Assembly (NCBI RefSeq): GCF_024223415.1
Contig: NZ_CP100501.1
Direction: 5' to 3' (one strand)
Source of the DNA: Escherichia coli
GTDB taxonomy: Bacteria; Pseudomonadota; Gammaproteobacteria; Enterobacterales; Enterobacteriaceae
Length of the DNA stretch: 64,000 bases
The first letter of the stretch is position 1; every line of letters starts with the position of its first letter. Made by a program: the position numbers and the translations under genes. The notes beneath the pieces were generated by a model. The model searched no databases. It was not told the origin of the DNA and worked only from the letters and a program-made list of their open reading frames with translations. Below are positions 24,274 through 33,158 of this stretch, piece after piece.

Positions 24274-24564
24274 TCCGGTAAGGATGAATCATCACTGTCT
24301 GATATTTTTTGATGCCACAGCAGGGGATGTGGCATGAAAAAACAGCAGAGGAAATAAATAATCTGTTGAGGGACAGGTGCGTATTTCTGTGTGATTACAG
24401 TAAATAATAAAAATGTAATAAGGTGGAAACACGCTGTCAGCTTAGTGAATTTACAGGCGGATAAGTGATTTTATTAATATGTACAACAATAGATTTTCTT
24501 CTTTTATTTTGTATAAATACCGGTGGGACATAAAAGAAACGGAGACTGCAGAGACAGAGATGAA

Positions 24565-24596
24565 GGGGTTCTACGCCGGAACCGCCGAAATTTCCG

Positions 24597-24602
<6 letters not shown>
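24565..24602 (+). repeat. Tn3-family terminal inverted repeat (tnpA-proximal end)
   Basis: Begins GGGG; tnpA stop codon lies inside it. Confidence 0.8.
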
Positions 24603-27027
<2,425 letters not shown>

Positions 27028-27118
27028 TTTTATAATCCGCCTATTTATTAGGCTGACGTTGTCTCATATAACTGGTACGATATCAATCTCTTTTATCCCC
27101 CCTTAAACGTACATTAAT
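27028..27118. promoter_or_regulatory. putative res/divergent promoter region between tnpA and tnpR
   Basis: Position only (intergenic between divergent tnpA and tnpR, as in Tn3/Tn5393-type elements); subsites not resolved by eye. Confidence 0.35.
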
Positions 27119-27694
27119 ATGACTGGAATCAAGATTGGCTATGCTCGTTGCTCCACAGACCAACAAGACCTAACTGCCCAGATAGATGCGCTGATAAATC
27201 TAGGCATTTCCACTGACAGGATCTATACAGACAAAGGACTGACTGGTTCAAACCGACAGAGGCCGGGCCTAGAACAGGCGCTTGCAGCGGTTCGAGAGGG
27301 AGATACGCTAGTTGTTCCAAAACTAGATCGTTTAGCCCGTTCAGTACCTGATGCAAGAGGTATTGCTGATATCCTACAAGCTCGAGGAGCGAAACTCGCT
27401 CTAGGGGACAGTATCTATGATCCAACAGACCCGATGGGGAAAATGTTCTTCAATATTCTTGCTACTTTTGCAGAGTTTGAAGGAGACCTTATTCGACTAC
27501 GAACTAAAGAGGGGATGGCTGTTGCCCGTTCAAAGGGAAAATTGAAAGGAAAACAGCCTAAATTATCTGAAAAACAACAAAAAGAACTATGCCGTATGCG
27601 TGATACTGGCCAGTACTCTATCAGCGATCTAGCGGAACTATTTACCGTCTCGCGTGCAACGGTTTATCGAACACTTTCACGAGGACAAAAATGA
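27119..27694 (+). CDS. tnpR: serine recombinase/resolvase TnpR
   Basis: 191-aa product with N-terminal catalytic region IGYARCSTDQQDL and C-terminal HTH (ATVYRTLS). Confidence 0.85.
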   Translation: MTGIKIGYARCSTDQQDLTAQIDALINLGISTDRIYTDKGLTGSNRQRPGLEQALAAVREGDTLVVPKLDRLARSVPDARGIADILQARGAKLALGDSIYDPTDPMGKMFFNILATFAEFEGDLIRLRTKEGMAVARSKGKLKGKQPKLSEKQQKELCRMRDTGQYSISDLAELFTVSRATVYRTLSRGQK

Positions 27695-27905
27695 CCGATT
27701 TAACTACACAGCAACATCTAGTAAAAATTGTCCATGATTATGCCTGCCCTCAAAAGGGTCATGGACAGTCCATCAAAGGTTCAAATGGATTACATCTGCA
27801 TTCAATACCCAGATTACTTCCGCTTTGCTAAATGGATAGAACGGTTGGCGTAGGGTATTGTTGATGGTGTAATTAAAGTTCCTAAAGATCATTAAAATAT
27901 CAGAT

Positions 27906-27936
27906 CGGAAATTTAGGCGGTTCCGGCGTAGAACCC
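27906..27936 (-). repeat. internal third copy of the Tn3-family terminal repeat (one mismatch), same orientation as the 30024 end
   Basis: CGGAAATTTAGGCGGTTCCGGCGTAGAACCC on the plus strand, followed by a partial AGAACCCC duplication. Confidence 0.7.
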
Positions 27937-27953
27937 AGAACCCCTTATCCGAA

Positions 27954-28817
27954 TTATTGTTCAGTTAACTTCATTTCGACAAGTAAAGGTAAATGATCTG
28001 AGACAGATGCATATGGCTTACTTTCAGGGGTCGCTCTATCTGACGGTTTAGGAATATATACATCTTTAATGTCCCATTTTTGAGCATTTGATGTAAGTAT
28101 ATAATCAATTTTCCTGTCTGGATTCCATGATGGTGCCGTGTACTTCAATTCCTTATCAGTGTCATTGAACCATGCTGTTAAATCCAAGTACTCTGTTGAT
28201 TGAGGTGGTAAATTAAGATCACCCACTATAATTGGAAGTGCATTTTTAAACTGCCAAGAAGAGAATTTTGTTTGAAGAGTTCTTACTTGCTCTGCTCGTA
28301 ATGGCTGCGTAGTGAAGTCCAAATGAGTAGTTACTAACATAACAGGCGCAGGATAATTAGGGACATCAACTTCTACAGCACAGGCCGCTCTTTGCTCCGC
28401 ACCTTTGATGTTAGGTAGTTCCATCCTTTTACTCAATTTCAAATCATACTTAGACAGTACTGCTGTACCATATTCCCCACCATCATGATCTATAGCCTTG
28501 CAGAAGTAATAATTCATTCCCAACTTATTAGCTATATACTCTGCTTGATTGACTGGGTTAGAACCCTCTTTACTAAAGTTCTTACCAGAACGCCTAGTCA
28601 TGTTATCAACTTCTTGCAGTCCAATAATATCAACATTCATTTTACGAATTGCTTCTACAATGGCATCAGTACTCCCCATTCTAGAGGCCATTATGTTATA
28701 TGACCCAACACGAATACTATCGGTATCTGCTGGACCATCCATGAGGCGATCAGAAGCTAAAGTTGAAGAGGAAAGAACTATAAACCCTATAACCGCAGCA
28801 ATGCTTGTTAATTTCAT
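27954..28817 (-). CDS. secreted endonuclease/exonuclease/phosphatase (EEP) family protein, low-GC cargo gene
   Basis: Signal peptide MKLTSIAAVIGFIVLSSSTLA; EEP-like motifs VGSYNIM near the N-terminus and SDHLPL near the C-terminus; composition much more AT-rich than the tra genes. Confidence 0.7.
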   Translation of the reverse strand: MKLTSIAAVIGFIVLSSSTLASDRLMDGPADTDSIRVGSYNIMASRMGSTDAIVEAIRKMNVDIIGLQEVDNMTRRSGKNFSKEGSNPVNQAEYIANKLGMNYYFCKAIDHDGGEYGTAVLSKYDLKLSKRMELPNIKGAEQRAACAVEVDVPNYPAPVMLVTTHLDFTTQPLRAEQVRTLQTKFSSWQFKNALPIIVGDLNLPPQSTEYLDLTAWFNDTDKELKYTAPSWNPDRKIDYILTSNAQKWDIKDVYIPKPSDRATPESKPYASVSDHLPLLVEMKLTEQ

Positions 28818-28818
28818 T

Positions 28819-29149
28819 TGGATTTGCCCCTATATTTCCAGATACCTGTTATCACTTAACCCATTACTGGCTTGCTGCCGTAGATATTCCCGTGGCGAGC
28901 GATAACCCAGTGCACTATGCGGATGCCATTCGTTATAATGCTCGAACGCCTCTGCAAGGTTCTTTGCTGCCGTTAACCCGTCTGGTTTGGGCATGACACT
29001 GATGTAGTCACGCTTTATCGTTTTCACGAAGCTCTCTGCTATGCCGTTACTCTCCGGACTCCGCACCGCCGTGCTCTTCGGTTCAAGCCCCAACATCCGG
29101 GCAAACTGCCGTGTTTCATTAGCCCGGTAGCATGAACCATTATCCGTCA
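28819..29149 (-). mobile_element. IS2 remnant (one end and the 3-prime part of insD), fused to IS1
   Basis: TGGATTTGCCCCTATATTTCCAGA terminal sequence at 28819; interior near-identical to 2294..2620 of the complete copy; ends 1 bp from the EEP gene start codon. Confidence 0.85.
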
Positions 29150-29444
29150 TCCATATCACCACGTCAAAGGGTGACAGCAGGCTCATAAGACGCCCCAGCG
29201 TCGCCATAGTGCGTTCACCGAATACGTGCGCAACAACCGTCTTCCGGAGCCTGTCATACGCGTAAAACAGCCAGCGCTGGCGCGATTTAGCCCCGACATA
29301 GCCCCACTGTTCGTCCATTTCCGCGCAGACGATGACGTCACTGCCCGGCTGTATGCGCGAGGTTACCGACTGCGGCCTGAGTTTTTTAAGTGACGTAAAA
29401 TCGTGTTGAGGCCAACGCCCATAATGCGGGCTGTTGCCCGGCAT
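28830..29444 (-). pseudogene. chimeric reading frame: IS1 InsB N-terminal part fused in frame to IS2 InsD C-terminal part
   Basis: Product begins [21 protein letters not shown]...VVIWMTD (IS1 InsB) and continues [22 protein letters not shown]... (IS2 InsD). Confidence 0.8.
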
Positions 29445-29693
29445 CCAACGCCATTCATGGCCATATCAATGATTTTCTGGTGCGTACCGGGTTGAGAAGC
29501 GGTGTAAGTGAACTGCAGTTGCCATGTTTTACGGCAGTGAGAGCAGAGATAGCGCTGATGTCCGGCGGTGCTTTTGCCGTTACGCACCACCCCGTCAGTA
29601 GCTGAACAGGAGGGACAGCTGATAGAAACAGAAGCCACTGGAGCACCTCAAAAACACCATCATACACTAAATCAGTAAGTTGGCAGCATCACC
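29150..29693 (-). mobile_element. IS1 remnant (left end, insA and the 5-prime part of insB)
   Basis: IS1 terminal repeat GGTGATGCTGCCAACTTACTGATTTAGTGTATGATGGTG (reverse complement) ending at 29693; insA intact; junction with IS2 at a shared CCGTCA. Confidence 0.85.
29363..29638 (-). CDS. insA: IS1 InsA
   Basis: 91-aa product [43 protein letters not shown]... recognised as IS1 InsA. Confidence 0.85.
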
Positions 29694-29985
29694 CGCGAAT
29701 TATTAAATAAATACCATGGGCTCTCTCGTATTAGCCAAAAATTAAGGCAAAAAGGCTCGAGACCTTAGTAATAGAACAAGAGCTTGAAGATACCGATGTC
29801 AATTGGTTTGAGACGTGCCTTAAAGCAAAAGAAAAAAAGTTTGGCAGCAGCTTCCCCCAAAATCAGAGTTAGAAAACAAAGATGATTCGTGACCTTCTAT
29901 ATTAAGGTCACTCGTTATCAATGATATTAGAGTGCATAAGCAAATAGAAAGAACATACCAGTCAATTACTTATACTTTCTTTGAC

Positions 29986-30435
29986 TCAATGTCGGAAATT
30001 TCGGCGGTTCCGGCGTAGAACCCCATGAAGTTGTTTTCTCCGTTTCCTTAATGAAAATTCAGCCAGAGGCGCAGCAGGATGATTATGTAGTGCACTTAAT
30101 GCCCTGTTGAACTGAAGTATTCCGGCAATATCCATCCATGAGAGATATTTATCGACGCTCACTGTGACGGTGATGCAGTCATGGGTACGGGATTTTTCAT
30201 GAATTTCTGCAGCCAGAAAGAGCAGCCAGCCGCCGTTAAATGCCGGGTGGCGGAGAATGAACCGGGCAATCTCTTTTTCAACTCCATCAGGCGGAATATC
30301 GTCCGTCAGTGTCCGGATAATAAAGTGCCGGAATGCATCAGCGGTGAACTGATATGCGGCAGAGAGGGTATCCATTTTTGTTCCTCTGTAAGTTGAGAGG
30401 GCCGGCAGAACGTCACCGGCACCGGTGTGTGTCAC
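29986..30435 (-). pseudogene. transfer-region gene (traS/traT-like position) whose 3-prime end is replaced by the transposon terminus
   Basis: The last 13 codons are encoded by the transposon terminal repeat; start overlaps the upstream ORF stop (ATGA); naming within traS/traT is uncertain. Confidence 0.5.
29987..30024 (-). repeat. Tn3-family terminal inverted repeat (cargo-side end)
   Basis: Exact reverse complement of the repeat at 24565; followed by the ATGAA duplication. Confidence 0.8.
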
Positions 30436-31250
30436 ATGACGTACTTTTTGTCAGGAAACGAATCCGGCAGCAGGATAAGCGCCACACCGTCCATTTTCTC
30501 CCGCAACATTTGACGCTGTGCCGGCGGCCAGCGGCGCAGTGCATCAGCAAAATCCGCCGGACGCCAGGTGCGAAATTTCTCCTCAACGGCCAGGCGGTTC
30601 TGTACCAGGGCATTCAGTACGGCCCGTCCCTGTCTGACTCGCTTACGCTCATCGCTGAAAATTTCCTTCAGTGCCCGTGCATTGAGAGCAACTACCGAGG
30701 CCGGATGCAAATCAGGGAGCCAGACCATCACCCCCTGTGCGGCAGCGTAGCCGTTCAGGCAGTGCCAGGCGTGGCAGAAGGCACAGAGATGAAAGGGCGG
30801 GCCTTCCGGCTGCAGCAGTTCACTTTCATTTTCGCTGAGTGCATCTGTTGTGACGATTTGTGACTTTTCCACATGACGCAGGGCCAGTCGCCTGGCCGAC
30901 AGGCGGGCCTGTGCCAGGGACCGCTCCGCATCCTGCAGGGTTCGGGTGTGTTTCTTTTTTTCGTCAGCGTTTTCCGGTACCGGATGTTTTTTCAGGCGCA
31001 TCACCCGGGTGAGGTTTTTTTCCAGCAGGACGACCGTATCCCGGCAGGTGTCAGCCATCTGCTGTAATGGCCATGAATCCTCCAGAATGAAGCGGTGAGT
31101 GACGGTCCTGCGACAGCAGGGACAGCGTCCGGGTGTTGAGAGCACGGGTGGTGGCAGCAGGGATTCACCGCTGAATACCGTGTCCGGTTGCGGGAGCGGG
31201 AAAAGCCAGCGTTCCCGGGCCGGGGCGATGAGTGGCGGTGTTTTGTTCAT
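30432..31250 (-). CDS. hypothetical transfer-region protein (traS/traT-like position)
   Basis: 272-aa ORF between traR and the disrupted gene; cysteine cluster CPCC and a CxxC-like pair near the N-terminus; start uncertain. Confidence 0.45.
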   Translation of the reverse strand: MNKTPPLIAPARERWLFPLPQPDTVFSGESLLPPPVLSTPGRCPCCRRTVTHRFILEDSWPLQQMADTCRDTVVLLEKNLTRVMRLKKHPVPENADEKKKHTRTLQDAERSLAQARLSARRLALRHVEKSQIVTTDALSENESELLQPEGPPFHLCAFCHAWHCLNGYAAAQGVMVWLPDLHPASVVALNARALKEIFSDERKRVRQGRAVLNALVQNRLAVEEKFRTWRPADFADALRRWPPAQRQMLREKMDGVALILLPDSFPDKKYVM

Positions 31251-31472
31251 ACGTTTTTCTCTCTGTATACAGGGTGACGGCAGCCAGAATCAGTGCTGCG
31301 ATGGCGGTGGAATAACACTCTGCAAACACAAACTCCTGATTATCCCGGTTGTCGCGGGCAATCACGTTGCCGTGCTCTGTTCTGAGCAGGGTGAAAGGGG
31401 GCAGCTCACAGGACATGGTCTGGTCCTCTTCATTGTGTGAAGACGGCACCGGGAAACCGGTGCCGTTGTGGA

Positions 31473-31871
31473 TTAACTGATGGAGACCGGAGAAAGACCG
31501 AGCGTTTTCTGTCCGCTGCTCATCATTTCCGGTACGACGGCAAGACAGGCACCGACCACAATGGACAGTATGCAGGCCAGCCCTGCTCCGGGTTTTTTAC
31601 CGATTTGTTTGAGGCCAAGCAGGCCGGCAATAAAGAGCACCAGGCCAATAACCTGAGCGATGGTCACAAATGAACTGCTGGAGCCTTTTGCACCATCGCC
31701 AACGGTTTTGATCATATCGAATAGGGTGTTTGCCATCGCTGTGTGGGGCAGCAGTATCACGGGAAGCAGAAGTAACAGGCGTATCAGCCGGTCACGGCAG
31801 GCCACCAGGCATAACTGAACATAAATAAATGCAGCGCACAGACGCGCCGCCATGGCACGGAATCGTGACAT
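31473..31871 (-). CDS. traR: TraR-like small inner-membrane protein
   Basis: 132-aa ORF with two hydrophobic segments; synteny after traQ; true start may be an internal Met. Confidence 0.5.
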   Translation of the reverse strand: MSRFRAMAARLCAAFIYVQLCLVACRDRLIRLLLLLPVILLPHTAMANTLFDMIKTVGDGAKGSSSSFVTIAQVIGLVLFIAGLLGLKQIGKKPGAGLACILSIVVGACLAVVPEMMSSGQKTLGLSPVSIS

Positions 31872-31917
31872 ATAGTCTCCTTAACTAACAGACTGAATTA
31901 CTGAAAATGAATGTGGA

Positions 31918-32448
31918 TCAGAAGGCGAGACCAAGACTCGCCAGAGAGGCATCGATGACGCGATCGATAAAAACCAGCAGAACGCCGGCAACAAACTTGA
32001 CGTTTCCTTTGCTGATGGACTCACTGCTGCTCAGGGCGGTATGCCCGTCCAGCAGGGATTTACGCCAGATGGAAATGCCGTTCATGGCAAATCCCACTCC
32101 GGCCAGTTTTACCAGTGAGAGCATGGCATTGGCGGCACCGGCAGCGGCACCAAAGGTGGTTGGTTGTACATAAGCGATAGGGCCGAAGGAATCTGCCCTG
32201 AATCCCATCTGGGTACCCCCGGCATTGATGAAGGATGGCAGGGCGACCAGCATGCCGCAGATGACGATACCGGCGATAAATTTTCCCGGTCCCATACTGT
32301 GACGCCCTTCTGCCCGGGCGCGCATCAGATGACCAATCAGGCCGATAATCCCCAGCAGCTCTCCCCAGGTGAAGAGAAACTCCATGCCTGCACTGAATAT
32401 ACCGCTGGCAAAGTTCTCTATGGCTGTCAGGGCATCAATGCTCATCAT
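31918..32448 (-). CDS. traQ: TraQ-like inner-membrane protein
   Basis: 176-aa hydrophobic product; size and position match recalled R64 TraQ. Confidence 0.6.
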   Translation of the reverse strand: MMSIDALTAIENFASGIFSAGMEFLFTWGELLGIIGLIGHLMRARAEGRHSMGPGKFIAGIVICGMLVALPSFINAGGTQMGFRADSFGPIAYVQPTTFGAAAGAANAMLSLVKLAGVGFAMNGISIWRKSLLDGHTALSSSESISKGNVKFVAGVLLVFIDRVIDASLASLGLAF

Positions 32449-33158
32449 CGTAATGTACCGGCAGAGGTGATGACTGAGCGGCTGGACGGTTCAATCCGGG
32501 TGATGGTGATATTCCCCAGCCTGTCACCTTCCCGTACTGCCCAGGCGCTACCCTGCCAGCGGATCCAGGCCATTCCTTTTTCCACCGACATGATTTGCAT
32601 GCCCTGCAGGCGGGAAGGCGGGGTTTTCGTTGACTGGCCGTTATTCCCGGTCGGGATTTGCAGTGGTCCCTGCATCTGCAGGGCATGCACCTGCTTACGG
32701 GTTTCATCAAGCAACTGACGGGTTTCCTGTGCCCAGGCCTCATCTTTCCGTATGGTGTCGCCAAGGGTTGTGATGCTCTCTTTCAGCATGGTCAGGGTAC
32801 GTCGGATTTCCTCATCCCGCCTGTCCAGCTCTGCTTTCAGGTCACGGGCAAGCTGCTGCATGTCTGCCTGTGGGGTGACAGGAGGCGCGGACATGGTGTT
32901 TCCGCTCCCGGTCTCCGTTATGGGCATGGGCTCTGCCCAGCTTTCGGCTGCGGGCGGTGTGACAGCGAAGCCTGCATCTGCAGGGGGCTCTGAGGGTGTC
33001 CGCAGAAACTTGTACCAGACTGCGGCCAGGATGATGAGGACACAGCCGGCCCAGACTGGCAGGCTGTATCCCATATACTGGCGTTTCAGGAAGGATTTGC
33101 CGGATGCCGGTGTCGTTGTTTCGCCAAAACTGCCGGGATCTTCATGTTCGTTTTTCAT
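32445..33158 (-). CDS. traP: TraP-like protein with N-terminal TM anchor
   Basis: 237-aa product; overlapping stop/start with neighbours; synteny. Confidence 0.6.
   Translation of the reverse strand: MKNEHEDPGSFGETTTPASGKSFLKRQYMGYSLPVWAGCVLIILAAVWYKFLRTPSEPPADAGFAVTPPAAESWAEPMPITETGSGNTMSAPPVTPQADMQQLARDLKAELDRRDEEIRRTLTMLKESITTLGDTIRKDEAWAQETRQLLDETRKQVHALQMQGPLQIPTGNNGQSTKTPPSRLQGMQIMSVEKGMAWIRWQGSAWAVREGDRLGNITITRIEPSSRSVITSAGTLR

Follow-up and report, generated by a model that had tools for sequence, protein, structure and literature searches.

On the F plasmid TraS acts in entry exclusion and TraT is a surface-exclusion lipoprotein, and Pfam families for the F-type exclusion proteins exist. 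The genes called traS and traT on I-type plasmids have only their names in common with these, the proteins being unrelated in size, location and context; when the 83-aa TraS and 272-aa TraT treated here were compared with Pfam, no family was matched, the F-type exclusion families included, and the sharing of names between F and I systems should not be taken to imply a common function. The closest described relative of our TraS is that of R64, a "putative conjugal transfer protein TraS" of 62 aa, encoded like ours between traR and traT. The two traS genes share the Shine-Dalgarno (SD) spacing, and both overlap traT at their 3′ ends in the same +1 frame relation; they differ in that the 83-aa protein ends at a stop 86 nt after the traT ATG, rather than 17 nt as in R64, and in that its helix has lost the charged E, K and R residues found in the R64 helix. 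As cited in PMC4288162 and PMC6112013, Komano et al. (2000) found traS to be non-essential for R64 transfer; in a TnSeq study of the IncI1 plasmid pESBL, traS was classed as "required for transfer", and its authors call the function unknown.

We analyzed a stretch of 64,000 nucleotides of Escherichia coli DNA (the window, contig NZ_CP100501.1, to which all coordinates refer unless a locus is named), in which a small open reading frame overlaps the start of a traT-like gene. Our reading, to which we assign a probability of about 0.88, is that the small ORF is traS, a known, lineage-restricted conjugation gene of I-complex (MPF_I) plasmids, with its own SD and ATG and overlapping a traT that starts at 31250. 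The gene is already known and annotated, and the finding is in that respect an ordinary one.

Plasmid setting

The genes around the finding make up the minus-strand traP-traQ-traR-traS-traT segment of an I-complex (MPF_I) conjugative plasmid. Over 1.5 kb around the finding, the E. coli plasmid p13KWH46-3 (IncK2/Z) was 100% identical to the window, and about 440 other plasmids, all but 4 of them predicted to be conjugative, were 90–99% identical; the IncK2/Z and MPF_I typing of these relatives refers to those examined. For IncI1 plasmids the only match at the DNA level (blastn) was one of about 69% in the 3′ half of traT. The upstream neighbor of traS is traR (31473..31871, minus strand), which matched Pfam PF20535 (DUF6750) with an E value of 1.2e-27 and is annotated as TraR or DUF6750 in reference records, and adjacent to it is traQ (31918–32448). 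TraR also matched the NCBIfam TraQ model weakly, below threshold (E 5e-5), which suggests that traR and traQ, adjacent genes for small membrane proteins, may be distant paralogues. A scan of 30300–32600 against Rfam gave no relevant match.

Relative to p13KWH46-3, the window has about 5.5 kb of extra DNA (24562–30025), which separates traU from the small ORFs that follow traT. Its cargo consists of a truncated Tn3-family transposase (DUF4158), a resolvase and an endonuclease/exonuclease/phosphatase-family gene, together with IS1 insA and a hybrid IS1/rve ORF. The tra operon is thereby interrupted on the upstream side of traU, with a possible effect on transfer.

Identity of the small ORF and selection on its core

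The small ORF occupies 31449..31165 on the minus strand (94 codons when counted from GTG 31449); its place is in the traH-Y operon of an MPF_I plasmid, with traR (DUF6750) on one side and traT on the other. Counted from ATG 31416 it is a CDS of 252 nt (31165..31416, minus strand), encoding 83 aa and ending with the stop codon TGA at 31167–31165, whose product is a homologue of R64 TraS: BLASTP gave 66% identity over 44 residues (E 8e-20) with an IncI1 TraS of 62 aa (WP_001277255.1), which has the same protein accession in the R64 record NC_005014. RefSeq holds the 83-aa ORF as WP_001277575.1, and reference records label the same CDS "TraS" (GenBank) or a hypothetical protein. The database search returned 32 TraS relatives; those that were intact and outside the IncK/Z clade to which the window belongs came from IncI1-type, other Salmonella and Pectobacterium plasmids and were 59–65 aa long. 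The family alignment has an invariant core, RTE.GNVIA...QEF..AEC, and the window TraS carries the motif (F/I)T.LRTE.GNVIA.D..D.QEF..AEC.S..IA..I...V. The typical length of about 59–65 aa did not hold for the IncK/Z clade, where TraS has 83 aa throughout; this is a difference of length, not of homology. An earlier reading made from the sequence alone (the sequence-only reading) had offered a real traS-like gene as one possibility for the small ORF, and the homology to R64 TraS, the conserved core and the existing annotation all bear this out.

The TraS family is narrow, for a profile made from its alignment and searched against 1.84 billion representative proteins gave just 24 hits, all of which were I-complex TraS variants, frameshift chimeras, or low-complexity and repeat noise; an informative domain fusion was not found among them. 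Searches of TraS against Pfam, NCBIfam and PHROG likewise gave no family match. An Enterobacter plasmid whose TraT is long has no traS, and the same is true of the MPF_I systems of IncL/M-like, Pseudomonas and Serratia plasmids; in all of these traT comes directly after traR, and traS is therefore not a core MPF_I component. Its absence from several MPF_I systems, the missing family matches and its dispensability in R64 would all suit a chance ORF in GC-rich DNA from which no protein is made, traT alone being real; however, the pattern of substitutions makes such an origin hardly credible. The traS ORF was intact in 10 of 10 indel-free sequences of the IncK/Z clade, and the codon positions of changes were compared within these 10 sequences, which have just 7 variable sites in the part that is traS only and 7 in the overlap. 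In the traS-only part, 6 of the 7 were synonymous third positions (binomial p = 0.007), and these included every change (6/6) in codons 1–54 (31255..31416, minus strand), the conserved core, for which three beta-strands and then one helix are predicted; the sole non-synonymous change was in codon 55. Between lineages the core had a pN of 0.19–0.29 against a pS of 0.62–0.84, with synonymous sites near saturation, and comparison with TraT, whose pN was 0.24–0.38, showed the TraS core to be constrained at least as much. We concluded that codons 1–54 of traS are under purifying selection, and that the tail that follows them is without constraint. Also at odds with a chance ORF are the retention of the protein core across lineages whose DNA escapes blastn, pN/pS values of 0.12–0.31, the conservation in four lineages of an SD at 6–7 nt, and a confident and compact AF2 model.

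The start of traS and the hairpin upstream of it

The traS SD, GAGGA (31424..31428, minus strand), is 7 nt before ATG 31416; the sequence-only reading had named this ATG, SD and spacing, and on the minus strand all three were exact. The same arrangement, with an SD 6–7 nt before the ATG, was present in IncI1 (AAGGAGG), Pectobacterium (AGAGG) and a second Salmonella lineage (GGAGG), making four lineages with the window. As the frame is open from 31449, traS could instead begin at GTG 31449 and encode a 94-aa protein, the start used by WP_001353683.1 in RefSeq and given in one Shigella record. This GTG, however, has no SD and is part of the 3′ arm of a stable hairpin of 10 bp, and it is the SD and the position of the ATG that were kept across lineages, not the N-terminal extension; a start there is thus very unlikely, and we place the start of traS at ATG 31416.

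The hairpin itself (31443..31466, minus strand) is GC-rich and follows the traR stop, ahead of the traS SD; the region folds at −31.2 kcal/mol (z = −5.5). Each of the five lineages examined (the window and four others; L005:1471–1497, L016:2462–2485, L006:2018–2045 and L018:2396–2422 in the comparison loci) has a GC-rich hairpin of about 10 bp directly after the stop of traR, with the structure kept and the stem sequences differing among the five (z −1.3 to −5.5). A terminator scan did not call it, and the lack of a T-run sets it apart from classical terminators; it could serve within the operon in RNA stability, processing or attenuation. Its loop (31453–31456) reads TTTC in the window and some relatives and GAAA, the exact reverse complement, in others with the same stems, which looks like an inversion by template switching and not four independent substitutions. 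In the Salmonella lineage of L018 (2350–2470) the traR-traS spacer is expanded, and tandem repeats, TAACCGC three times and GCATAGC/GCATAAC four times, flank the hairpin.

The start of traT and its overlap with traS

The traT CDS (30432..31250, minus strand) encodes 272 aa from ATG 31250; no start codon precedes this ATG in its frame. From residue 12–15 onward, the N-terminus of the window TraT aligned with TraT of IncI1, Pectobacterium, the second Salmonella lineage and Enterobacter, in a pattern W-L-x-P-x-P ... P-L-L-P ... G-R-C-x-C-C common to the five I-complex lineages; the other long TraT proteins start a few residues upstream of the aligned block, each with its own SD. Moreover, the pair C43xxC46 was invariant in all eight TraT homologues aligned, including the short TraT of Klebsiella, Pseudomonas and Serratia MPF_I plasmids. 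Because of this alignment and the invariant cysteines, we place the true start of traT at ATG 31250. PGAP annotates a 627-nt CDS in several relatives, which begins at the internal Met65 (208 aa) and would leave no overlap with traS, and the SD before ATG 31250 (GAGAG, with an 8-nt spacer) is weaker than those in other lineages. A start at Met65, however, would remove residues 12–64, which align with TraT of the four other lineages, and with them a cysteine pair kept even in the short TraT and DotN-like homologues; substitutions in the overlap cluster at third positions of the 272-aa frame, and the Enterobacter plasmid, which has no traS, starts its TraT at the homologous position with a strong AGGAG. 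With so conserved an N-terminal segment at stake, the 208-aa CDS is a mis-start, and we consider it very improbable that traT begins at Met65. The later start codon for the 272-aa ORF that the sequence-only reading had entertained fails for the same reasons, the alignment of residues 12–64 and the invariant CxxC.

With traS read from ATG 31416 and traT from ATG 31250, the two genes overlap by 86 nt (31165..31250, minus strand), as against an original estimate of about 85 bp, and the traT ATG is at position 2 of a traS codon. The same frame relation was found with shorter overlaps in IncI1 (17 nt), Pectobacterium (14 nt) and the Salmonella lineage (17 nt). The sequence-only reading had posed the overlap as an either/or, in which one of the two ORFs was spurious or the 272-aa ORF started later; instead, both genes are real and overlapping. 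It had also named, as grounds for discarding the small gene, homologue alignments that fix the 272-aa ORF at 31250 and show no conservation of the small ORF; the alignments did fix traT at 31250, and the small ORF proved to be conserved.

Within the clade, all 7 variable sites of the overlap were non-synonymous in the traS frame; 5 of the 7 were traT third positions and 4 were synonymous in traT. The overlap, then, evolves in the traT frame. It corresponds closely to the clade-specific TraS tail, codons 55–83 plus the stop (31165..31254, minus strand), a basic segment (pI 10.9) rich in P, G, T and A; these 29 residues are missing from all of the 59–65 aa homologues. Within the clade 12 of the 29 tail residues varied, against 4 of the 54 core residues (Fisher p = 3.5e-4). 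Since the overlap sites are non-synonymous in traS and follow the traT frame, and the tail varies so freely, the tail seems to arise as a by-product of coding for traT, without constraint of its own. In the IncK/Z clade traT is longer by six codons at its N-terminal end and the traS frame has no stop before the TGA at 31165, which accounts for the 29-residue tail and the 86-nt overlap. The tail, with an overlap of 86 nt rather than about 15 nt, is the sole clade-specific feature.

Public annotation and apparent TraS-TraT fusions

The sequence-only reading had called start-site assignment in this part of the operon unsettled, and public records are indeed inconsistent, with TraT at 272 or 208 aa and TraS at 83 or 94 aa; TraS is annotated at 83 aa in most records and at 94 aa (GTG start) in the one Shigella record, and RefSeq records NZ_MN335640, NZ_MT725450 and NZ_CP022458 (loci L003, L009 and L012) have inconsistent traS and traT starts. 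Sequence databases also hold TraS-TraT fusion proteins (P0010 and P0012), which, along with a traS/traT frame relation conserved in all lineages, would fit programmed +1 frameshifting near the A-run GAGAGAAAAACG to make a single fusion protein. The fusion of the P0010 type, however, was reproduced by plasmid pK38 (LC620534, locus L015, 666–1707), an indel-rich assembly in which comparison with all relatives showed 7 single-base deletions over 1,049 nt. These deletions, most likely assembly error, create an apparent TraS-TraT fusion and split-TraT proteins that have entered protein databases (P0010). A conserved slippery site was looked for across lineages and not found; every lineage provides traT with an ATG and SD of its own, and in four lineages the gene occurs without traS. 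Programmed frameshifting is almost certainly not the explanation, and we rejected the database fusions (P0010 and P0012) as biology, having traced their source to assemblies that, like pK38, contain numerous single-base deletions.

Predicted structure of TraS

The sequence-only reading had described a small membrane protein with one hydrophobic helix. A hydrophobic stretch is indeed present in the window TraS (CYSTAIAALILAAVTLYT; 19-residue Kyte-Doolittle maximum, KD19, of 1.98), and it is unusually apolar for the family, but the membrane label is unsupported at the family level. In the AlphaFold2 (AF2) model of the R64 TraS homologue, with a core pLDDT near 80, a three-stranded sheet is followed by a helix that packs against it, and this helix is the "hydrophobic helix" in question. 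In R64-type and other homologues the helix is amphipathic, with E, K and R among its residues (KD19 1.0–1.3, and 1.6 in Pectobacterium), so that a transmembrane role is not a property of the TraS family. For the IncK/Z protein taken by itself, a single-pass or monotopic inner-membrane location has in its favor an 18-residue uncharged stretch, a KD19 above the classical threshold of 1.6, and neighbors, traQ and traR, that encode small membrane proteins. We nevertheless think such a location unlikely, given the charged equivalent helix of the homologues, its packing on the sheet in the R64 model, the lack of a signal peptide-like N-terminus, and the 13 strongly apolar residues of the run, which are short for a transmembrane span. 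TraS codons 1 to about 54 would form a small acidic beta-beta-beta-alpha domain, most likely soluble. A Foldseek search of the TraS model against the PDB gave nothing below E = 0.27; the lambda Int N-terminal domain and chemokine-like beta-beta-beta-alpha folds were set aside as weak, non-significant resemblances.

Predicted resemblance of TraT to DotN

Searches of the 272-aa TraT against Pfam and NCBIfam gave no family match, and phmmer against PDB sequences gave no DotN hit at E ≤ 1. When the AF2 model of TraT (pLDDT 82) was compared with the PDB by Foldseek, the top 8 hits were all Legionella pneumophila DotN (probability 1.00, E 1e-3 to 3e-2). DotN/IcmJ (PDB 5X1H, 5X42 and 6SZ9 chain C) was the best and only consistent structural match of the model, superposing with an rmsd of about 3 Å over about 125 residues and a TM score of 0.49–0.51 on the length of DotN. 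As Foldseek detected the relation and phmmer did not, it is one of fold alone. I-type TraT is thus predicted to have a DotN-like fold, to which, compared with DotN, it adds a helical-hairpin insertion of about 80 residues (residues ~60–123) and an extra N-terminal segment. Cysteine pairs are common to TraT and Legionella DotN, and C43, C46 and C159 were invariant in 8 TraT lineages. DotN binds zinc (bioRxiv 10.1101/2025.01.23.634512), and the conserved TraT cysteines may be candidates for a comparable zinc site. Finally, traT lies between a DotP/IcmD-like gene (traR) and the gene for a DotO/IcmB-like ATPase (traU), a synteny shared with DotN. TraT would then be a DotN-like, cysteine-rich subunit, presumably of the type IV coupling complex.

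Two further groups, Orf38 (IncL/M plasmids pCTX-M3 and pOXA-48) and the short TraT from MPF_I plasmids of Klebsiella, Pseudomonas and Serratia, are likewise encoded between traR and traU and are homologous to the C-terminal half of TraT (30–36% identity); unlike the window TraT, they are about 190–200 aa long and have no traS upstream. In pCTX-M3, orf38 stands in place of traST (PMC6112013), and Orf38 of pOXA-48 has independently been reported to be DotN-like (bioRxiv 10.1101/2025.01.23.634512). The insertion of about 80 residues is missing from the ~190–200-aa TraT/Orf38 proteins of IncL/M-like, Pseudomonas and Serratia plasmids. An Enterobacter plasmid has the insertion without traS, and the two are therefore not strictly linked.

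Discussion

We propose that traS is translated from its own SD (31428–31424) and ATG 31416. In every traS-bearing lineage the 3′ end of the gene runs into the start of traT, whose ATG occupies position 2 of a traS codon. Ribosomes translating traS would cross the traT initiation site, and hence translation of traS may influence initiation at traT. Folding of the mRNA around the traT ribosome binding site gave no sequestering structure (z = +1.1), so obligatory coupling, in which the passage of ribosomes unmasks the site, is unsupported. We infer that TraS may be a cytoplasmic accessory factor, co-expressed with TraT and possibly acting on or with it. Because the genes overlap, a transposon inserted in traS could have a polar effect on traT, and the traS requirement seen with pESBL may reflect such polarity.

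A more specific and speculative proposal, which we hold to be rather improbable as a whole, is that TraS is a lineage-specific partner of TraT in the coupling complex, that the overlap sets the TraS:TraT ratio, and that in IncK/Z the shift of the stop and the loss of charge from the helix rewired the coupling or interaction. If true, this proposal would also explain the disagreement between the R64 deletion and pESBL transposon results.

For annotation, comparative evidence fixes traS at ATG 31416 (83 aa) and traT at ATG 31250 (272 aa), and RefSeq entries in related plasmids with a 208-aa TraT and a 94-aa TraS are mis-started. On TraS, deletion and TnSeq results are in conflict, and the geometry of the overlap can guide the mutation of traS without touching traT.
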